The position numbers were made by a program, and so were the translations under genes. From Candidatus Woesearchaeota archaeon (GTDB lineage Archaea; Nanobdellota; Nanobdellia; Pacearchaeales; GW2011-AR1): a stretch of DNA of 53,830 nucleotides. Location of the stretch: positions 1-53,830 of the forward strand of contig CAZQLD010000007.1 of the NCBI GenBank assembly GCA_964594115.1. Direction: 5' to 3'. Below the pieces are notes generated by a model. That model did not search any database. It was given only the letters and a program-made list of their open reading frames with translations, and had not been told where the DNA came from. This document shows, piece after piece, positions 31,535 through 40,331 of the stretch (position 1 is the first letter of the stretch; the number at the start of each line of letters is the position of its first letter).

Positions 31535-31948
31535 TTATTCCAAAGCTTTTTCTAAGAAACTTCTTGCTTCTGGTGAGAGTTCTTTTAAAATAGCATCCTT
31601 AACTTCTGGATTTATTTTTTTTAATCTATCCCTTGTATATGTTATTTCAGGAGATTGCATCACCTTTCCCCATGGATCTTTGTTTTTTCTTACATTTTTA
31701 ATCCAGATATAAAGACTAATTGGATAATGCTCTTCTATTTTATCTCTATGCAGGTGCATTTTTCCAATATTTTGATCTCTAAAATATATTGTCATATATC
31801 TTATAGTCATTGGAGGTTCTAATCCACTAGAAGGATTCCAACCATAAAAACATGTTTTCTCATAATCTATTGACTCTATTTCTGAGTTTCCTCTTATAGG
31901 ATAATCTTCTTTAATTGTAGCATTTCTTTGAACTTCAATTTCTGGCAT
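31535..31948 (-). CDS. Hypothetical protein (last gene of operon C)
   Basis: 137-aa ORF directly after the vWA gene. Confidence 0.65.
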   Translation of the reverse strand: MPEIEVQRNATIKEDYPIRGNSEIESIDYEKTCFYGWNPSSGLEPPMTIRYMTIYFRDQNIGKMHLHRDKIEEHYPISLYIWIKNVRKNKDPWGKVMQSPEITYTRDRLKKINPEVKDAILKELSPEARSFLEKALE

Positions 31949-31968: not shown

Positions 31969-33501
31969 TTACTTTATTGACTTTCTAAGCTCCCCCATTG
32001 TAATATCTCTTATATGGCTTGCTGACCATAAAGGCAAAATTCCTACGTTTTCTTTTGATATTAAAGATGCTGGGATATCGGAATATCCGTGTGGATTTGT
32101 ATAAAATAAATGAACTCTATGGAGATTTGGTATCTTAGAAACATAATTATGAAATTCTTCTAAATTGTTAATTACCATATCAGAGATTACACTTATATCC
32201 ATATACTCTTCATTTCTAATTATTTTTTCTATAATTGAAGGATTAAAAGTTGTTCCTCCATTTTGATATGTTCTTATTTTTTGATGGATTTTTTCTTTAT
32301 TTCTAGAAGGTTTTAGAACAATGTCTGAAGCTGAAAAATTGTAAACAGCAACACTAGAATTATTATCAATATAAGCATTAGCAATAACAGTTCCTCCTAA
32401 AACCGAGGCTGAGATATTCTCATCTGGATTTATCATACTTTCTGAAGAATCTATAACAATCAAACTATTTGGAGTCCCAAAATTTTCTTCCATAACTTCT
32501 CCTTGTTTCTTAACCCATTTTTGAGTTACTCCTGGTAAAATTCCTGGACTTGAAAAACAATCTAAATCATCTATAGTATCTCCCATACTAAATTCTTTAT
32601 GAGAATAAGGGTATAATCCTCCATTTTTTCTCATTTTCCTTTGTCTTATTGGTATAGAATAATTCTCAGCTAAAGCAGAGTAAAAATTTCCTGCAATAAT
32701 CAAATTTCCTTTTTCTGTTCCTGCCCCCAAAACTTCTTTTACTGTTTTTTCAAATTTTCCTGGTTGAGACTCTCTTGCAAATTGTTTAACTCCTTCTCTT
32801 ATCTGGTTTTCAGAAAAAATTGATGCTAGATTAGGATCTGCCCCTTCTCTGATTCCCCCTTCTCCATTTCCTCCTTCCTCTTGCCCTTCTAAATCCTCTA
32901 AATATTCCCTTGTATTTTTAATAAACTTTCTTAAATTTTGCTCTTGTTTTTCTTTATTTAAGTAATTTAGTTTAGATAATTTTCGTATTAAACATTTTTC
33001 TTTGAAATTTAATTTTATTTCCAAATCCTGATTCCATAATTTCTGATAAATTCCAAAAGCAAGTTTCTCTAGACCCTCTACTTCTTTACTTGTAGCCCTT
33101 AAACTAGGAATAAGTGTGTTATATCCCCTATTTGCAAGAAGATTAAGATTATTTTGAATATTAGTAAAAGTTCCTCTTGCTACCTGGGCTTGCTGTTTAT
33201 TTAAACTTTCCCTTGCAACTTTATGTAATTTAAGTAAATTTAGGATACTCCCAGGATAATCTGCAAAATGCCCTACTTCATGACCTAGCATGGCATTTAA
33301 AATAACCTTCTCCTCACAACCTTCTTGTGCAAGTTTTTTAACATAATCTGGATTAATGTCAATTTGTAAATTATTAAAGCTAAATCTTCCATTTGCAATT
33401 TCTTTTGTTAGTCTTGGAGGGGGTAGTTGGGGATAATAAAAGTCCTCTCTAATTTTCCCCCATTCTTTTTTCATTATTTCGTGCAATTTTCCACTTTCCA
33501 T
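31969..33501 (-). CDS. HExxH metallopeptidase-like plus vWA domain protein
   Basis: LGHEVGH, acidic Gly linker, MIDAS IDSSES...GGTT...VISD. Confidence 0.85.
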   Translation of the reverse strand: MESGKLHEIMKKEWGKIREDFYYPQLPPPRLTKEIANGRFSFNNLQIDINPDYVKKLAQEGCEEKVILNAMLGHEVGHFADYPGSILNLLKLHKVARESLNKQQAQVARGTFTNIQNNLNLLANRGYNTLIPSLRATSKEVEGLEKLAFGIYQKLWNQDLEIKLNFKEKCLIRKLSKLNYLNKEKQEQNLRKFIKNTREYLEDLEGQEEGGNGEGGIREGADPNLASIFSENQIREGVKQFARESQPGKFEKTVKEVLGAGTEKGNLIIAGNFYSALAENYSIPIRQRKMRKNGGLYPYSHKEFSMGDTIDDLDCFSSPGILPGVTQKWVKKQGEVMEENFGTPNSLIVIDSSESMINPDENISASVLGGTVIANAYIDNNSSVAVYNFSASDIVLKPSRNKEKIHQKIRTYQNGGTTFNPSIIEKIIRNEEYMDISVISDMVINNLEEFHNYVSKIPNLHRVHLFYTNPHGYSDIPASLISKENVGILPLWSASHIRDITMGELRKSIK

Positions 33502-33502
33502 T

Positions 33503-34537
33503 TTAAGCAGTTATTTTTTCTAAAATCCCTCCAATATATTTTTTAGAATTTCCAAGAAGTTTTGCAAGAGCAAAGAGGTTGTCTCGAGCATTAGAACCTT
33601 TTAAAGATTCTACATAACTAATTGCATTATCTCTATACTTTTCTATTAAATCCGCTGTGGCATTCATTGCTCCAGATTCTACTAATAATTCTGTAAGTCT
33701 AGAAAAATCTCCTTCACCTATCGCACTTCTTACTTTTTCTCCACAACCATTATTAAAAGCATAAACTATAGGATAAGTTAAAATCCCTTTTCTAATATCT
33801 TCATAAGAATTTCTTGATAAGCTTTGTGACCTGCTTCCAATAACTTCTTGAGGAATTAAATCCATTAAGTCATTTCTTATCTGGCATGCAATGCCATAAT
33901 TTCTGCCAAAATTTTTAAGAGCATCTTTGTCACTTTCTGAAGATTTTCCGAATATAGAACAAATTTCAGAAATTTTTTCAGCAGCTACGCCAGCAATAAA
34001 ATAACATCTTTCTAAATAAGAATTCTCACTAAAATCTCCTGTATTTTCATTTTCATCCTGGCCCAAATAAATAGTTTTTAATGTTTCATTCCATAGCCTA
34101 CATACGTCTTCTTTATCTTTTCCTTCTAACTCTGAATTTAATAATATTTCATTAGAAAGTGTATATTGGATAAGGCCTGCAATAATAGCTTTATTTAACC
34201 CATATTTTCTTACAGTACTTGAATCTCCTTCTCTTACTTCTTGATTATCTAAGATATCGTCAATAACATAACAAGAACTTGTTCCTAACTCAAAAGCACT
34301 AAGAACAGGAACTATCTCTTCCCAATTTTTCCCACCTACTGCTTCAAATGCTAGTCTTCCTAAAGTTGGTAAAAGCTTAGGTTTTCCTCTTTTCATTCCG
34401 CACCTTAATGTTGGGAGATGCTTAACAACTTCTCCAAAACCCTGAACATACTCTAAAGTATAAGAATCTACTTTTCTTGCTGTTTCTTTCATATAAGCAA
34501 AAATATCTACTTTTTTCTCAAGGTTTTTTTGTGCCAT
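33503..34537 (-). CDS. Polyprenyl diphosphate synthase family protein (non-canonical motifs)
   Basis: FARM YVIDDILD, GQDE, and second motif QIRNDLMD; GILTYPI. Confidence 0.85.
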   Translation of the reverse strand: MAQKNLEKKVDIFAYMKETARKVDSYTLEYVQGFGEVVKHLPTLRCGMKRGKPKLLPTLGRLAFEAVGGKNWEEIVPVLSAFELGTSSCYVIDDILDNQEVREGDSSTVRKYGLNKAIIAGLIQYTLSNEILLNSELEGKDKEDVCRLWNETLKTIYLGQDENENTGDFSENSYLERCYFIAGVAAEKISEICSIFGKSSESDKDALKNFGRNYGIACQIRNDLMDLIPQEVIGSRSQSLSRNSYEDIRKGILTYPIVYAFNNGCGEKVRSAIGEGDFSRLTELLVESGAMNATADLIEKYRDNAISYVESLKGSNARDNLFALAKLLGNSKKYIGGILEKITA

Positions 34538-35561
34538 TTTTCAAAAAATCTAAATTTTTACATGCAGGGTCTTCTGCTAGAAAATTTCCTGAACGATAAT
34601 AAGCTCTAGATCTACATCCCCCACAATTTTCTTTAACTTGACAGGATCCACAATATCCTTCTAAATTGCTTCTATCTCTAAGCTGGTGTAAAACAGAAGA
34701 ATTTGCAATAATATCTTTAAATCTTTCTTCTCTGACATTTCCCACTTTTAAATCTGGCAAAAAAGTACAAGGAGTAACATCTCCATTTGGTTGTATAGCA
34801 TACATGTCAAATCCTGCCTGACATCCAATAATAATTTCTTTTTTATTTTTCTTACTTAGGCCTTTAGAATTATTTTGTGAGCTTCTATAAAGGGAATATT
34901 TTGCATCAAAGCACCATACTCTTGGGTTGGTATTAGAATTTTCGTAAGCAACTTGAAATATCTCTGTTCTTTGTTCATGAGTAAGATCTTCATGGGGCAT
35001 ACTCTTAGCTCTCCCAATAAGCCTAAAATCAATTAATTCTATTTCATTAACTTTCAGGCTTTTACCAAATTTAATTAGATCTTCTAATTCACCAAAGTTT
35101 CTTTGTGAGAGAGGTATGCTTAACTCAGCTTTTATTTTCTTTTTTCTGAGATTTTTTATTCCTTCTACTACTTTTTCAAAACTTCCTTTTCTCCCCCGAA
35201 CTTTGTCATGTAACTCTGACTTTGTACTATAAAGGCTCACATTAACAATTCCCACTCCTAAATCAGATAATTTTTCAACATTTTCCTCATTAAGAAGAAA
35301 TCCATTTGTTCCCACACAAATAGGTATCTTTTGAGTAGCGTATTTTAAGACCTCCCAGAAATCATCTGCCATCATTGGCTCTCCTCCACTAATTCCAACC
35401 ATTCTTGGTTCAACTTCTTCTAATTGATCTACTAAAACTATTTTCTCATAAGTAGTTAACTCATCTTCTTGTTTAGAGCCAGCATCCTGAGAACAATAAT
35501 CACAATGTAGATTACATTCATTAGTAAAATGCCATACAAGAAAAGGAAATTTGCTTTCCAT
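34518..35561 (-). CDS. Radical SAM/SPASM protein (NirJ/AhbCD/PqqE-like clade)
   Basis: CNLHCDYC, SGGEP, GCQAG...NGDVTPC, and CGSCQVKENCGGCRSRAY. Confidence 0.92.
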   Translation of the reverse strand: MESKFPFLVWHFTNECNLHCDYCSQDAGSKQEDELTTYEKIVLVDQLEEVEPRMVGISGGEPMMADDFWEVLKYATQKIPICVGTNGFLLNEENVEKLSDLGVGIVNVSLYSTKSELHDKVRGRKGSFEKVVEGIKNLRKKKIKAELSIPLSQRNFGELEDLIKFGKSLKVNEIELIDFRLIGRAKSMPHEDLTHEQRTEIFQVAYENSNTNPRVWCFDAKYSLYRSSQNNSKGLSKKNKKEIIIGCQAGFDMYAIQPNGDVTPCTFLPDLKVGNVREERFKDIIANSSVLHQLRDRSNLEGYCGSCQVKENCGGCRSRAYYRSGNFLAEDPACKNLDFLKNGTKKP

Positions 35562-35563
35562 TT

Positions 35564-35968
35564 TTAGAACCCCCTATCTACCTTCACTTCAGATACTACT
35601 TTTTCTAAATCTTTTTTCTTTGCTTTAATATCTTTCTCTCTTCTTTCCCTTGAACCAAATTCATTCTTATAATGAAAGCCTCTTCCATCAGCTGTTTTTC
35701 CATCAATATTAATTGTGTAATAAGTAGAACCCCCACTACAACCAGAAGTTTCATATGACCCTAATTGAATTACTGATTTATTTTTTTCTATAGCATTGCT
35801 ATGCTCAGTAAAATAATCAGGAAGTTTAACAGATTTCCTTGATGTATCAGCTTTTTTTGATTTATTTTGCTTCTTAATTTTTCTTGATATTTCTTCATCT
35901 AGCTCAGCACCAGAATTATAAGTTAACTCAGCTAACTTCAATAAGTTTGAATTAATTTCTTTTGCCAT
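35564..35968 (-). CDS. Hypothetical protein with Ser/Gly/Cys/Tyr-rich core
   Basis: 134 aa, coupled to both neighbours; GSYETSGCSGGSTYY segment. Confidence 0.7.
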   Translation of the reverse strand: MAKEINSNLLKLAELTYNSGAELDEEISRKIKKQNKSKKADTSRKSVKLPDYFTEHSNAIEKNKSVIQLGSYETSGCSGGSTYYTINIDGKTADGRGFHYKNEFGSRERREKDIKAKKKDLEKVVSEVKVDRGF

Positions 35969-35969
35969 T

Positions 35970-37319
35970 TTATTTTAATTCTCCTTGCAAATCTAGAAAT
36001 ATTGGGTGCCCTTTTCCACTAGAAGCATATGTTTCAGCTGCTTTTCTAGCTTTTTCTAACTTTCCTTTTTGTATAAAACTCATAACTGTTTGATAGTTTT
36101 TACTGCTTTCTAAAACTCTTTTTTTAACTCCAGAGATTTCGTCAGTTCCCTCCCTAAGAAGTGTTTTAACTGCATGCAAGGCCAAAGGATCTTCTCTAGT
36201 ATCATCTTTAAATTTATTGATGGTCTCTTCAGTTAATCTTATTCTGTGCCATAAAGCATAAGGTGCAACTGTTAAAACATGCTCTAAATTAGCCTGCTTT
36301 TTACCTTGCAACCATGCTAAAGCTTTAGAATATCTAACTATGCTTTTATCTAATCTTCTACTCCCACTCCCTTTAACTAAATTATATAAATAATGGCCTT
36401 CCTCTGAGCTTATTGGGTCATTACTTCTTTTTTGACCATATTTTGGGTGTTGATTAAGTTCTGAAATTAAAAATCCTAAATAAGTAACAGCATCTCCATC
36501 TAAACCAGTAGATTCAATCTCTTTATCCACAGCAACTAATTCCTGTTCTGTCAAGGTATCCAAATTCCTCTTTTTTAATTCAGCTCCAAAACTATCAGAA
36601 AGTTTTTTTAAACCAGGTGAAATTTCTTCATAAGGTTTTTTAGAATTTAATAAATCTAAAATTTCTCTAGATATTTTAGGATCTTTTAAAATCCCCTCTT
36701 TCCCATTATTCCAACTATTGCTAATAGCAATAGCATTTGATACTCCTGGAAACTTGCTTTCAGTTGCTACATCAAATCTATCTAACAATGGAGGAATTAG
36801 AGTATTGCTTCCTCTATCTTCATAGTTACAAGTTGCAAAAAAAGGCTGTCTTCCTTGGGCAATATGGCTATTCAAATAACCCCACTCTCCCCTATCTACA
36901 CCATCTAATAACATTGATTGATTTGATTCTGGAATTCTATTAAACTCATCAACAAGTTTTGGTTGGATTAAAACAAAATTCTGCCAAATAACTTCTTCTT
37001 GACCTTGATGCATTCTACCATAATCAGGTCTTCCAACTGTCTTCTCCTGAGTTAATTGCGGATTCCCCCTAATAACAGATCTTCTAACAATATCTATAGG
37101 AATATTATGAAAAACGCTATGTAAGTATTCAGCAGAAGTTGTCTTTCCTCCACCATATTCTCCAAATAAAATCTGGTTTCCTTTATTAAGCTCTGTTAAT
37201 ACTCCAAAAAGAAGAGATGAACTAAACTTCTCTCCACCAACAGATAAATCATCCCTACATAGGTAAAAATCATTTTTTATTACCCCATACAAACATAGAA
37301 CTTTATTTTGCAATGCCAT
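35970..37319 (-). CDS. MoxR/RavA-type AAA+ ATPase
   Basis: GEYGGGKTT, LVDEFNR, FATCN and PPLLDRF; likely start MALQNK at 37319. Confidence 0.88.
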   Translation of the reverse strand: MALQNKVLCLYGVIKNDFYLCRDDLSVGGEKFSSSLLFGVLTELNKGNQILFGEYGGGKTTSAEYLHSVFHNIPIDIVRRSVIRGNPQLTQEKTVGRPDYGRMHQGQEEVIWQNFVLIQPKLVDEFNRIPESNQSMLLDGVDRGEWGYLNSHIAQGRQPFFATCNYEDRGSNTLIPPLLDRFDVATESKFPGVSNAIAISNSWNNGKEGILKDPKISREILDLLNSKKPYEEISPGLKKLSDSFGAELKKRNLDTLTEQELVAVDKEIESTGLDGDAVTYLGFLISELNQHPKYGQKRSNDPISSEEGHYLYNLVKGSGSRRLDKSIVRYSKALAWLQGKKQANLEHVLTVAPYALWHRIRLTEETINKFKDDTREDPLALHAVKTLLREGTDEISGVKKRVLESSKNYQTVMSFIQKGKLEKARKAAETYASSGKGHPIFLDLQGELK

Positions 37320-37323
37320 TTTC

Positions 37324-37926
37324 CTACTCCTTCTTAGCTGATTTTTGGGAAGCAATGTAATCAGTTAGGTCTTGACATTTTGTTGCAGCATACAGGAGCT
37401 CGGCGTTTACTTCTGGACGAACTTTACCAAGATTTTCTTTATCCAAATCTACCAATGTTTCACATTTAGAATCTATTTCTGCCACAAGTTCTTTAATTCT
37501 TTCTTCTAATGTTTCGTCTAAACTTACGTAAGCTGCTCGTAGAGATGCCATAGTTGCTACAGAAAGTTGTCCTTCATGATACGCTTTTGCTTTAATTGCT
37601 TGGATGTTTTGTCTTGGTATTTTCCCCTTATATTTAATTATATCAAAATTAGTGAATAATGTTCTCACATCTGGATTAATAGGTTCTCCTAGCTCTGATG
37701 AAGTTTGTAATACATAACCAATTGCACCTTCTTTTGGTAATTCTGAAGCACGATCTGTAATTGTCTTTTTTATTCCGGCAAGGTCAACACCATCCTTATA
37801 TGCATCACGATTTTTTGTTCGTGTTTGGATATTAGCTATTCCACCAATGATCTCAATGGGTTCTCCTGAATCTTCAATGACAAAACCCTTATCTGGGGTT
37901 AAAATAATTTTTTTCAAATTTTCCAT
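37324..37926 (-). CDS. Hypothetical protein
   Basis: 200 aa, tightly coupled in the operon. Confidence 0.7.
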   Translation of the reverse strand: MENLKKIILTPDKGFVIEDSGEPIEIIGGIANIQTRTKNRDAYKDGVDLAGIKKTITDRASELPKEGAIGYVLQTSSELGEPINPDVRTLFTNFDIIKYKGKIPRQNIQAIKAKAYHEGQLSVATMASLRAAYVSLDETLEERIKELVAEIDSKCETLVDLDKENLGKVRPEVNAELLYAATKCQDLTDYIASQKSAKKE

Positions 37927-37928
37927 TT

Positions 37929-38267
37929 TTACAATCCAGCCTCCTTGGCTTTTCTATTATATTTTTCATATTTATCTGAAAAATTTCTAATTAAGGGTCG
38001 CTTACTTGTACGGACATAAACATTTCCTACAGGATTTCCAAGATTCATTGCAACATAACTAGAAATGTAAAGTGTTTGAACTTCAAATCTTCCAAGAGTC
38101 TTAAAATGACGGGATGCTATGGTGTCCTTATAAATAACAAGTTCTTCTCTTCCATCAAAATTTAAAATATCTCTTACCTTAGAAGAACTTGGAAATTTGA
38201 CAACACAATCTAAGGTTTTTGCTTGTCGTATCTTTGATTCTGCTATTTTTTTAGTTTTTTTTGCCAT
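37929..38267 (-). CDS. Hypothetical basic protein
   Basis: 112 aa, in the operon. Confidence 0.65.
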   Translation of the reverse strand: MAKKTKKIAESKIRQAKTLDCVVKFPSSSKVRDILNFDGREELVIYKDTIASRHFKTLGRFEVQTLYISSYVAMNLGNPVGNVYVRTSKRPLIRNFSDKYEKYNRKAKEAGL

Positions 38268-38281
38268 TTTACTTTCTTATT

Positions 38282-38575
38282 TTAGAATATCCCTGCTTTT
38301 TCTTGCAAAGATTGTGGTGTTCCTTTTTTTCTGAATAATTTTACTAATTTGCCTATTTTTTGTGGAAGGTTATATCCAGGGCATTGTTTAGCCAATCTTT
38401 CATTATAAATCTTAGAACCGAAACTAACACTATGTCCACTTATATTCTCTCCATCAAGTTCAAAAGGTTCATTATCTTTAATTTCTGGCGCTGCTACACA
38501 AGGATTTTTAGTCAAAGTACAATACCAACTATTTTTCCTTGGACTTGTATATGCGCAACCTGGTGTTCGACACAT
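38282..38575 (-). CDS. Cys-rich hypothetical protein (possible metal binding)
   Basis: CRTPGC...CTLTKNPC...QCPGY. Confidence 0.65.
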   Translation of the reverse strand: MCRTPGCAYTSPRKNSWYCTLTKNPCVAAPEIKDNEPFELDGENISGHSVSFGSKIYNERLAKQCPGYNLPQKIGKLVKLFRKKGTPQSLQEKAGIF

Positions 38576-38576
38576 T

Positions 38577-38945
38577 TTACTCCTCTCTTGCAGGCTTTAG
38601 ATGTACAATATATTTATTTTCTTCAATCCATACATGATGTAAAGGTTTATTTTCAAAATAAGTAACAGAGAAATGGGGAGTTACTCCTGCAGCGTATTCT
38701 TCAAAGGAAGCAGAAGAATCATATTTTAAAGAAGGCATTTTTTGAACTATGGGAGAAATTTCAGTTACATTTTGGTTGTTAGAGGAATAGCTTACTAAGA
38801 CCTCAAGAAAAGTGTTCATTCTAATAGGTTCTCCTGTTGAATCTACAACCTGGCAATGCTCACTAAATAATTCTAGTCTTTCAGTTAAATCTTTCAATTC
38901 ATTTTCATTATTTACTTTAAAAATTCCTTTAAATTTCACTGTCAT
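38577..38945 (-). CDS. Hypothetical protein
   Basis: 122 aa, TAA-AA-ATG coupled. Confidence 0.65.
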   Translation of the reverse strand: MTVKFKGIFKVNNENELKDLTERLELFSEHCQVVDSTGEPIRMNTFLEVLVSYSSNNQNVTEISPIVQKMPSLKYDSSASFEEYAAGVTPHFSVTYFENKPLHHVWIEENKYIVHLKPAREE

Positions 38946-38947
38946 TT

Positions 38948-39298
38948 TTATCTCTTCAAATATTTACGCAAATTTTCCCAAAAAGAAGGTTTAGAATATT
39001 TTCTTTTTCTTTTTTCTATTTCTGATAATAAAAATTCTCTTGCAGAATCTACTTCTAAAGGACCAAATTGAAAACCAACATAATTTGCTTTGCTAAAATA
39101 ATGTTCATGATACACTTCAAAAGCTTCTTGAGGTTTAGGAAATTTATTACCATAATTATTCCAAAAAGAGTAATCTAAACCAAGTTTATATTTTCTTAAA
39201 GATTCTAGTTTTTCTTCTCTAGATAATTTTCTTAGGTCTCTATCAAGACTTCTCAAAGCATATTCAAGATAAGGTGCTGGTTTCAATTTTTTCGCCAT
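38948..39298 (-). CDS. Uncharacterised helical protein, paralog of 24753-25115
   Basis: PYLEYALRSLDRDL...NYVGFQFGPLEVDSAREFLLSEIEKR. Confidence 0.8.
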   Translation of the reverse strand: MAKKLKPAPYLEYALRSLDRDLRKLSREEKLESLRKYKLGLDYSFWNNYGNKFPKPQEAFEVYHEHYFSKANYVGFQFGPLEVDSAREFLLSEIEKRKRKYSKPSFWENLRKYLKR

Positions 39299-39299
39299 T

Positions 39300-39602
39300 T
39301 TATTTTCCTTCTTCTAATTTATTTACTTCAGCCTGTCTCTTTAATAACTCATAAACATAAACCCCTGCGAGATAAGTCGCAAATCTATCACTACAATATT
39401 CATCTGCAAATCTGTCTAATGCTTTTGTAACTTGGGGATTTGTTGAGGAAAGGTGTCCTGTTAACCTTTCTATATTCTTTAGGACTGATTCGAAACCCTC
39501 TCTGTCAAACTGTTCATTATCTCTAAAAAATAAGTCAATTGTGTCCTGTGCCAGTACAGGCAAGCCCTCTGGTGTGTATCTTTCATTTTTCATTTTCCTC
39601 AC
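39300..39602 (-). CDS. Small helical protein of unknown function
   Basis: GLPVLAQDTI...TNPQV...AGVYVYELLKRQAE; start GTG 39602 or ATG 39593. Confidence 0.75.
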   Translation of the reverse strand: MRKMKNERYTPEGLPVLAQDTIDLFFRDNEQFDREGFESVLKNIERLTGHLSSTNPQVTKALDRFADEYCSDRFATYLAGVYVYELLKRQAEVNKLEEGK

Positions 39603-40331
39603 CTAAAATTTATAGCCAAGACTAACGCCACCCCATGTTTTATCTTTGATAAAATCTTCTTGGCTGTATTGTTTATTTACAGAAATATTCAGATTCCAGT
39701 TTCCTTTATTGAGTCCAAGAGAAACTCCAGGAGTAACCTGGGTATGGCCTGTTTTTCCATAGTAATTCTCTATGACCGAAGTGCTTAGACTAGGGGTTAA
39801 TGAAATATCGGTTTTTCCTAGTTTTCCTATTGGAAATTTTTTTGAAATTCTCCAGTAATATCTATTTCCACTTTTAGGGGTTGTTTTAGTTGGGAGTAAA
39901 TGTGTTAATTCAAAGTCTAAATCAAATTTTCCAGAATAATGGGCTCCAGCTTTCAAAACACTATCATAATCTCCAAAAGTTCCAGAAGGGTAGCCCCAAT
40001 ATTCATATCCTCCTCTTATAGAAAATCTATCTGTTATAGGCAAAGAATGGCTTATTCCAAAATCCCTCTCATTAAAAGCACTTTCTTCATATGAATAATT
40101 CTGCCATACAAATCCAGAGAACATATCATTAAAATTTACATTAATTAAGTCTTGTCTAACCTGTCCTTCAACCATTACACCATGTTTTGCAACATAATCT
40201 GAAACAAGGGCGGTTTCAACATAAATATCTGGCTTTTTCATATTATTAAAACAGCCAGAAACTGCTCCTAATAAAGCAGCTAGTCCGGTTATAGCTGCTT
40301 GTTTTATTCTTGAACTCCATTGGTTTTTCAT
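39603..40331 (-). CDS. Secreted predicted beta-barrel protein (TIGR02001/TorF-like), paralog of 26934-27689
   Basis: Signal with VSGC; VSDYV, NERDF and YWGYP; C-terminal WGGVSLGYKF. Confidence 0.75.
   Translation of the reverse strand: MKNQWSSRIKQAAITGLAALLGAVSGCFNNMKKPDIYVETALVSDYVAKHGVMVEGQVRQDLINVNFNDMFSGFVWQNYSYEESAFNERDFGISHSLPITDRFSIRGGYEYWGYPSGTFGDYDSVLKAGAHYSGKFDLDFELTHLLPTKTTPKSGNRYYWRISKKFPIGKLGKTDISLTPSLSTSVIENYYGKTGHTQVTPGVSLGLNKGNWNLNISVNKQYSQEDFIKDKTWGGVSLGYKF

Follow-up and report, generated by a model that had tools for sequence, protein, structure and literature searches.

What might a radical SAM (rSAM) enzyme and a polyprenyl-synthase-fold protein encoded by overlapping genes make together in a DPANN archaeon? 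The pair lies on contig CAZQLD010000007.1 (contig C7; 53,830 nucleotides, the whole of which is referred to here as the window) in a genome of 0.96 Mb and approximately 31% GC from a Candidatus Woesearchaeota archaeon. A preliminary description of the two genes had proposed a two-enzyme route to a modified isoprenoid or a prenylated peptide. The gene set is larger than this: it is a five-gene module of a MoxR ATPase, a small Cys-loop protein, the rSAM/SPASM enzyme, the isoprenyl-diphosphate-synthase-fold (IDS-fold) protein and a zincin-vWA protein. The small protein, encoded directly upstream of the rSAM, is a third partner and the most tightly co-inherited of them, and the trio of small protein, rSAM and synthase (approximately 2.5 kb) sits as cargo between the MoxR ATPase and the zincin-vWA protein. 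The reading favoured here, tentatively, is that of a protein-modification module, in which the small protein would be prenylated in a ComQ-like manner and then radical-crosslinked under MoxR/zincin-vWA control, with every chemical step offered as a proposal. Of the two kinds of product first suggested, the evidence leans to a modified protein without deciding between them.

Conservation and rarity of the gene trio

The rSAM and synthase genes overlap by exactly 20 nt, as first described, and two metagenomic contigs repeat this overlapping order, L001 (rSAM and synthase 68% and 64% identical to the window proteins, respectively; overlap of 23 nt) and L002 (48% and 39% identical; overlap of 20 nt). 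The recurrence of both order and overlap indicates that the arrangement is not due to chance. The junction nucleotides AAAAATGGCACAAAAAA are kept between the window and L002 despite proteins at only 39-48% identity, and the residues immediately after the first ATG of the synthase (IF.YM.ET) are kept in relatives, which indicates that the overlapping start is the real start. These comparisons support a conserved and probably translationally coupled pair.

The gene for the small protein ends 2 nt ahead of the rSAM start, with the arrangement kept in L001 and L002, and homologues of the small protein occupy the same position in both contigs. At each of the three loci with readable gene context (the window, L001 and L002), the trio is conserved as a set. 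Neither Pfam nor NCBIfam offers a family match for the small protein, and an exhaustive profile search of 1.84 billion representative proteins, out of a total of approximately 15 billion, returned only four members, the fourth of which sits on a contig of 1.4 kb. It is absent from the 400 other genomes of the class, and scans of JGI metagenome contigs and IMG/VR viral contigs yielded no further loci of either the small protein or the cassette IDS-fold protein. The features of the locus are collected in Table 1.

Table 1. Features of the five-gene module and of the gene overlap, in window coordinates
Feature	Position	Strand	Basis
Radical SAM/SPASM enzyme, short form without N-terminal domain, 347 aa	34518..35561	-	Pfam Radical_SAM + SPASM
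IDS-fold protein, 344 aa	33503..34537	-	Pfam PF00348
20-nt overlap of rSAM stop with synthase start (translational coupling)	34518..34537	-	Sequence read directly
Small Cys-loop protein, 134 aa, proposed client/substrate	35564..35968	-	Conserved beside rSAM in L001 and L002
MoxR-like AAA+ ATPase, 461 aa, upstream frame edge	35970..37355	-	Pfam AAA_lid_2 + Walker motifs
HExxH (zincin-like) helical N-domain and C-terminal vWA with complete MIDAS, 510 aa, downstream frame edge	31969..33501	-	Seven-sequence alignment

The same packed minus-strand operon also contains a 242-aa exported protein, six small open reading frames (97-200 aa) and a 137-aa open reading frame with no family hits (window positions 37324-40331 and 31535-31948). 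These are not counted as part of the cassette because none of them is conserved in L001 or L002.

Features of the cassette proteins

All four small proteins share the motifs L-P-x-Y, S-G-C-S-G, T-x-Y, G-x-T, G-x-G-F-x-Y and D-L-E-K-x-V, and conservation lies in the C-terminal domain, with a variable N-terminus. In the AlphaFold2 (AF2) model, an N-terminal helix is joined by a disordered linker to a beta-beta-beta-alpha-beta domain, with a predicted local distance difference test score (pLDDT) above 90 for approximately residues 60-130. In this model the SGCSG motif sits at the tip of a hairpin, with Cys77 on the loop that joins strands 64-74 and 81-91. A Foldseek comparison with the PDB gave no significant match (best E value of 0.07, TM score of approximately 0.35), and the idea that the small protein is a split-off N-terminal domain of the lipid-crosslinking enzyme Gms was rejected (hhalign probability of 0.2%). 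Trp is missing from the window protein, and no Trp is invariant across the four homologues.

The synthase matches Pfam polyprenyl_synt (PF00348) at 87.6 bits against a cut-off of 27, and its best NCBIfam match is 82 bits against equivalog cut-offs of 450-500, none of which is reached. The motifs DDILD (residues 93-97), VREG (101-104, in place of the usual RRG) and NDLMD (222-226) are all present as quoted in the preliminary description, and the departure from canonical synthases extends well beyond the second and third of these. On alignment to Pyrococcus geranylgeranyl diphosphate (GGPP) synthase (1wy0) and E. coli octaprenyl diphosphate synthase (5ze6), GGKRxRP is replaced by GKPKLLP, RRG by REG with loss of the second Arg, KT by IA with Lys changed to Ile, GKxT by GILT with loss of the Lys, and DDxxD of the second Asp-rich motif (SARM) by NDLMD with loss of the first Asp. 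At least four basic residues that canonical synthases use in diphosphate binding are thus missing. Given the loss of these and of the SARM Asp, the protein is unlikely, as judged from its sequence, to make plain GGPP. The DDxxD of the first Asp-rich motif (FARM), R102, D223, D247, G251 and T254 are invariant across the whole clade to which the synthase belongs, and N222 is nearly so.

A second motif of N-D-x-x-(D/N) and an R-x-x in place of RRG are common to this one small synthase clade, which is sporadic, with nine loci in a scan of 185,579 species genomes. Relatives of the synthase come from Pace-, Woese- and Micrarchaeota and a few bacteria of the candidate phyla radiation, which marks the host as a DPANN archaeon, and the top PDB profile match of the clade is a GGPP synthase. 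A housekeeping role for the clade in the class was rejected, as none of the 400 other genomes has a member at E <= 1e-30. The three cassette-linked synthases are monophyletic within the clade (99/99) and have trio-specific residues C46, C89, C218 and L56, the last of which is Arg in 16 of the 18 other clade members. The invariant Cys residues of the cassette-linked synthases (C46, C89, C178 and C218) replace conserved active-site residues, namely those at position -4 from the FARM, at the Lys of the KT motif and at position -4 from the second motif; they might conceivably bind a metal or a cluster, or serve in redox chemistry. A general link of the clade to rSAM enzymes was also considered and rejected, since only L003 has a nearby rSAM, which is of the B12 type. 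Other clade members lie in contexts that look biosynthetic: at L003:304-3628, on a Patescibacteria-like contig, beside the B12-type rSAM and a methyltransferase; at L013:369-5229, beside AurF-like and GATase genes; and at L009:414-1814, fused to a NUDIX domain.

The rSAM matches Pfam Radical_SAM (91.5 bits) and SPASM (45.1 bits). Its CxxxCxxC motif begins at residue 16, which leaves no room for an N-terminal domain the size of a RiPP recognition element (RRE; RiPP, a peptide made by the ribosome and modified after translation), and eight Cys residues follow the core (217, 247, 265, 304, 307, 313, 316 and 334), seven of which are invariant among relatives. The full SPASM Cys set and missing RRE of the preliminary description are therefore both borne out, and the neighbouring genes that were scanned include none for heme, PQQ or mycofactocin. 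Among NCBIfam models, for which the matched rSAM cut-offs are 395-650 bits, the highest scores are to NirJ2 (219 bits against 500), AhbD (212 against 500), TIGR04053 (202), NirJ1 (185 against 650) and AhbC (147 against 650). Neither the rSAM nor any of its homologues reaches an AhbC, AhbD or NirJ equivalog cut-off, supporting the view that it is not a member of these families. The best PDB sequence match is SkfB, and PADLOC and PHROGs scans of the cassette proteins gave only generic rSAM (viperin-like), kinase or AAA matches.

The nearest large family of the rSAM is a group of long-form archaeal rSAM/SPASM proteins (437-531 aa, with an N-terminal extension of approximately 110-150 aa), to which it is 37-39% identical over 95% of its length. 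In a phylogenetic tree whose homologues carry no labels of their own, the cassette rSAMs form their own long-branch clade (100/100) in a polytomy with the long-form clade and apart from a group annotated by JGI as heme synthase. On a JGI metagenome contig (L029:4262-8763), the gene of the long-form member P0018 immediately precedes those of a B12-binding rSAM and of a bona fide Tes (664 bits, over a cut-off of 450), a row of genes which looks like a gms-gmm-tes cluster for tetraether-lipid modification. By context and architecture, the long-form family appears to be Gms-like, and the cassette rSAM would then resemble the core of Gms without being a Gms, as it falls outside the published description of that enzyme. 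The likeness to archaeal lipid rSAMs that had been suggested thus stands in part: the nearest large family appears to be Gms, whereas Grs was rejected as a relative, being a B12-binding rSAM without auxiliary clusters, and Tes is not close by sequence.

Whole-genome searches of the host found no ALAD (PF00490), no UbiA-type prenyltransferase, no HMG-CoA reductase and no Tes, the best match to the Tes model being the cassette rSAM itself (47 bits, with the cut-off at 450). With the metagenome-assembled genome only 84% complete, these absences are provisional. As they stand, they weaken the heme and lipid alternatives: the missing ALAD bears on the former, and without HMG-CoA reductase, UbiA and Tes a role in the membrane-lipid synthesis of the host is unlikely. 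The genome contains three PF00348 paralogues, of which the two besides the window synthase lie at C23:1-387 and C4:64518-65237, and a single SPASM match above the Pfam cut-off. The paralogue at the end of C23 matches the IdsA model at 152 bits over half of its length and possesses the motifs QIQDDILN and GKDFGEDITEGK, making it a better candidate than the window synthase for the ordinary short-chain enzyme.

The MoxR/zincin-vWA frame and its cargo slot

The MoxR protein matches Pfam AAA_lid_2 (32.5 bits) and, weakly, AAA_5, with a readable Walker A (GEYGGGKTT) and Walker B (LVDEF), and has orthologues at 32-57% identity in 34 of the 401 genomes of the class. Homologues of the zincin-vWA protein (24-44% identity) come after MoxR in related genomes, either directly or past a variable insert. 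A seven-sequence alignment of the latter protein shows invariant H74-E75-x-x-H78, D351-x-S353-x-S355, G416-T417 and D441, the last three of which constitute the DxSxS...GT...D of a metal ion-dependent adhesion site (MIDAS). The Pfam VWA_2 match is weak but is present in six of the seven members. Sequence and profile searches of the PDB found nothing for this protein, and its AF2 model is poor (pLDDT of 33), so that the zincin/peptidase assignment is made from the HExxH motif.

The interval between MoxR and zincin-vWA is empty in two of the related genomes (L046 and L047), holds an uncharacterized tagged protein of approximately 300 aa in two others (L041 and L042), and holds the trio in the window and L002, the latter having the same gene order of MoxR, trio and vWA. 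As it is empty or differently filled among related genomes, the interval is a variable cargo slot. In L043 (1641-2771) the slot contains a 376-aa leucine-rich-repeat protein (LRR_14, 191 bits), which suggests a sensor or binding cargo and gives the frame the flavour of a conflict system. Immediately upstream of MoxR in L002 (6664-7251) is a 195-aa protein with a MutS domain V (ABC ATPase-like), where the window has an unrelated open reading frame of 200 aa.

Several otherwise different proteins begin with a common motif, M(P/V)N.RF(L/I).LA.R..N, after which comes a charged or Pro-rich linker (L041:1523-6443, L042:5168-9400, L001:264-644 and L001:2718-2909). It heads several cargo and downstream proteins of L041 and L042, as well as the protein downstream of the L001 synthase, and looks like a common client or cargo tag. 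A hidden Markov model (HMM) of the tag, built without any small protein, detects the small Cys-loop protein of L001 with an E value of 8.6e-6.

Proposed mechanism, alternatives and known systems

In the favoured protein-modification reading, the IDS-fold protein would no longer elongate chains with isopentenyl diphosphate (IPP); it would bind an allylic polyprenyl diphosphate through its intact FARM and move the prenyl group to an acceptor other than IPP, in the style of ComQ and ComX. The likeliest acceptor lies in the exposed S-G-C-S-G hairpin loop of the small protein and would be the invariant Cys or, alternatively, a neighbouring Tyr. The rSAM, which would be made 1:1 with the IDS-fold protein and is related to Gms without its lipid-cap domain, would then act on the attached chain or the loop, forming a C-C or C-S bond by radical chemistry. 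MoxR and zincin-vWA would recognize the N-terminal helix and linker of the client and unfold, cleave or release the modified protein, and the same frame would handle other tagged cargo proteins in related genomes. This reading is favoured because the trio is co-conserved with its junction kept, and because the small protein is rare and has an invariant hairpin loop. The IDS-fold protein retains the FARM and D223 yet loses the SARM Asp and basic residues, for which ComQ is a precedent; the nearest large family of the rSAM looks Gms-like from the context of P0018; and the cargo slot is variable, with the small protein of L001 carrying the cargo tag. A more specific version, in which S- (or O-) prenylation of the exposed loop would be followed by crosslinking by a cap-less Gms relative and release of a lipid-cyclized effector by MoxR/zincin-vWA, is rather improbable in all its parts; if true, it would represent a new class of protein lipidation and the first pairing of an IDS fold with a Gms-type enzyme on a protein.

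Several observations weigh against a modified protein as the product. The small protein is a well-folded protein of 134 aa in which a domain is conserved and the N-terminus varies, whereas a typical RiPP precursor shows the opposite, and the rSAM has no RRE. The small protein also lacks Trp, so the chemistry of ComQ could not be copied exactly here, and so many diphosphate-binding residues are gone from the IDS fold that it may not bind a prenyl diphosphate. The Gms identity of the long-form family is drawn from context and architecture. The MoxR and vWA proteins of the window are barely alignable with those of L002, and neither flanks the trio in L001. The tag HMM misses the small protein of the window, the N-terminus of which (INSNLLKLAELTYN) is only positionally similar, and the tag argument consequently rests on the L001 orthologue and positional homology. 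The genomic absences are also provisional at 84% completeness.

The alternative that survives best, although unlikely, is a free-isoprenoid pathway, in which the IDS-fold protein would condense or rearrange prenyl diphosphates irregularly and the Gms-like rSAM would turn the chain into a small lipid product by coupling or cyclizing it. The role of the small protein would then be that of a carrier, chaperone or regulatory partner, and MoxR/vWA would mature the enzyme complex, in keeping with MoxR/vWA pairs being known enzyme-maturation chaperones. Small molecules are the normal substrates of IDS-fold enzymes, chrysanthemyl diphosphate synthase is known to have NDxxD, the nearest family of the rSAM appears to be lipid-modifying, and the synthase relatives in L003 and L013 have biosynthetic-looking neighbours. 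However, a genome without HMG-CoA reductase, UbiA and Tes puts both the supply and the use of isoprenoids in question, and the cassette rSAM lacks the cap domain that, together with the RS domain, frames the hydrophobic substrate pocket of Gms. The strict co-inheritance of a protein with an exposed invariant Cys, and its cargo-type N-terminal tag, would also be left unexplained.

More doubtful is a module without prenyl chemistry, in which the IDS fold would be dead, or a structural or substrate-presenting subunit replacing the N-terminal domain of the rSAM, and the rSAM alone would modify the small protein, for example through a crosslink of thioether or sactionine type, or by oxidizing the loop Cys in the manner of formylglycine formation. 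Most of the basic diphosphate-binding residues are indeed lost in the cassette IDS, SPASM enzymes commonly work on Cys-containing peptides or proteins (the best PDB sequence match is SkfB), and two genes coupled so tightly at 1:1 would suit an enzyme of two subunits. Against this, the clade-wide FARM, R102, N222/D223, D247, G251 and T254 argue for a retained Mg-diphosphate site, and non-catalytic IDS subunits usually lose the FARM.

The idea of a housekeeping pair, with an AhbD/NirJ-type tetrapyrrole rSAM beside a plain GGPP synthase by chance, is very improbable and largely refuted, for although the top NCBIfam names are NirJ2 and AhbD and the top PDB profile match of the IDS clade is a GGPP synthase, the scores of 212-219 bits fall far below the cut-off of 500, no ALAD was found in the genome, C23 holds a more canonical IdsA-like paralogue (152 bits, across half of the model), conservation extends to the pair, its overlap and the small protein alike, and neither the small protein nor the IDS clade, being absent from the 400 sister genomes, is housekeeping. 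The preliminary description had named a synthase that makes plain GGPP, together with clustering of the rSAM with AhbC/D and a heme pathway elsewhere in the genome, as the outcome that would speak against it; what was found instead is an rSAM that fails the AhbC and AhbD cut-offs in a genome with no detected ALAD.

Each component of the module belongs to a known superfamily, and the novelty lies in the combination of a cap-less Gms-like rSAM, an IDS-fold protein stripped of IPP-binding residues and an orphan Cys-loop protein, in its extreme rarity, and in its placement as cargo of a DPANN MoxR/zincin-vWA frame. To our knowledge, the prenylation of peptides by IDS-fold enzymes is essentially limited to ComQ/PalQ in Firmicutes, and the joining of isoprenoid sp3 carbons by Gms/Tes-type radical chemistry is known only on membrane lipids. 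If the favoured mechanism were true, both chemistries would reach a folded protein as client, and would do so in a DPANN archaeon apparently unable to make lipids of its own. Regardless of the chemistry, the locus defines a modular MoxR/cargo/zincin-vWA system in DPANN archaea, in which the cargo is interchangeable and some of it has a shared N-terminal tag, and this modular frame offers a handle on what MoxR-vWA pairs do with their clients.

Among known systems, AhbD, AhbC and NirJ share a broad sequence neighbourhood with the rSAM (RadicalSAM.org mega-1-1; PMC11186832) and provide its best NCBIfam names, but the rSAM scores less than half of their equivalog cut-offs, and neither ALAD in the genome nor heme genes among the scanned neighbours were found. 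The rSAM-dependent RiPP systems likewise have a gene in the precursor position adjoining the maturase; they possess an RRE or PqqD-like domain and a precursor with a conserved leader and variable core, whereas the cassette rSAM has no N-terminal domain and the small protein varies at its N-terminus and is conserved in its C-terminal domain. Chrysanthemyl diphosphate synthase, like the window synthase, has Asn for the first Asp of the second motif, but is a plant enzyme that is otherwise close to farnesyl diphosphate synthase, whereas the cassette protein has lost several basic residues besides.

ComQ and PalQ, members of the isoprene-synthase superfamily of which ComQ is IDS-like, resemble the window synthase in their IDS fold, retained FARM, degenerate second motif and operon-encoded small protein. 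In ComQ, the FARM is kept and binds the prenyl donor, and the lost SARM has become a pseudo-SARM that binds the peptide acceptor (PMC10853753). ComQ prenylates a Trp in a short peptide, whereas the candidate acceptor in the window is a folded 134-aa protein with an invariant Cys and no Trp. The rSAM gene also intervenes between the IDS and small-protein genes, and there is no detectable specific sequence relationship to ComQ.

Gms is a glycerol monoalkyl glycerol tetraether (GMGT) synthase, a radical SAM/SPASM enzyme that joins two biphytanyl chains; it consists of an N-terminal six-helix (COG4001) domain, an rSAM core, a bridge and SPASM, is at least 400-420 aa in length, lies near AhbC/AhbD in sequence space, and its gene is often found clustered with that of the B12-rSAM methylase Gmm (PMC11186832, PMC11214058). 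The window rSAM shares the core, bridging region and SPASM, with Cys residues enough for two fully ligated auxiliary clusters. By comparison with the published description, it differs in its length of 347 aa, its lack of a COG4001 domain and its position in a long-branch clade of its own. As no Tes was found in its genome, the host would also be without a glycerol dialkyl glycerol tetraether (GDGT) substrate of its own.

The closest parallel to the frame is found in MoxR-vWA ternary conflict systems, the simple type of which comprises a vWA protein with a helical N-domain and a standalone radical SAM acting on a peptide effector; prenyl chemistry is not mentioned in the account of these systems by Kaur et al. 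2020 (PMC7159879). The window shares with them a MoxR ATPase, a helical-N-domain vWA protein, a third component that varies, and an rSAM encoded together with a small protein. It differs in that no FtsH-type component, VMAP or iSTAND was found in the Pfam and PADLOC scans of the neighbouring genes examined, in the HExxH of its N-domain and in the IDS-fold enzyme of its cargo. Those ternary systems are, moreover, from multicellular bacteria, whereas the host of the window is a DPANN archaeon.

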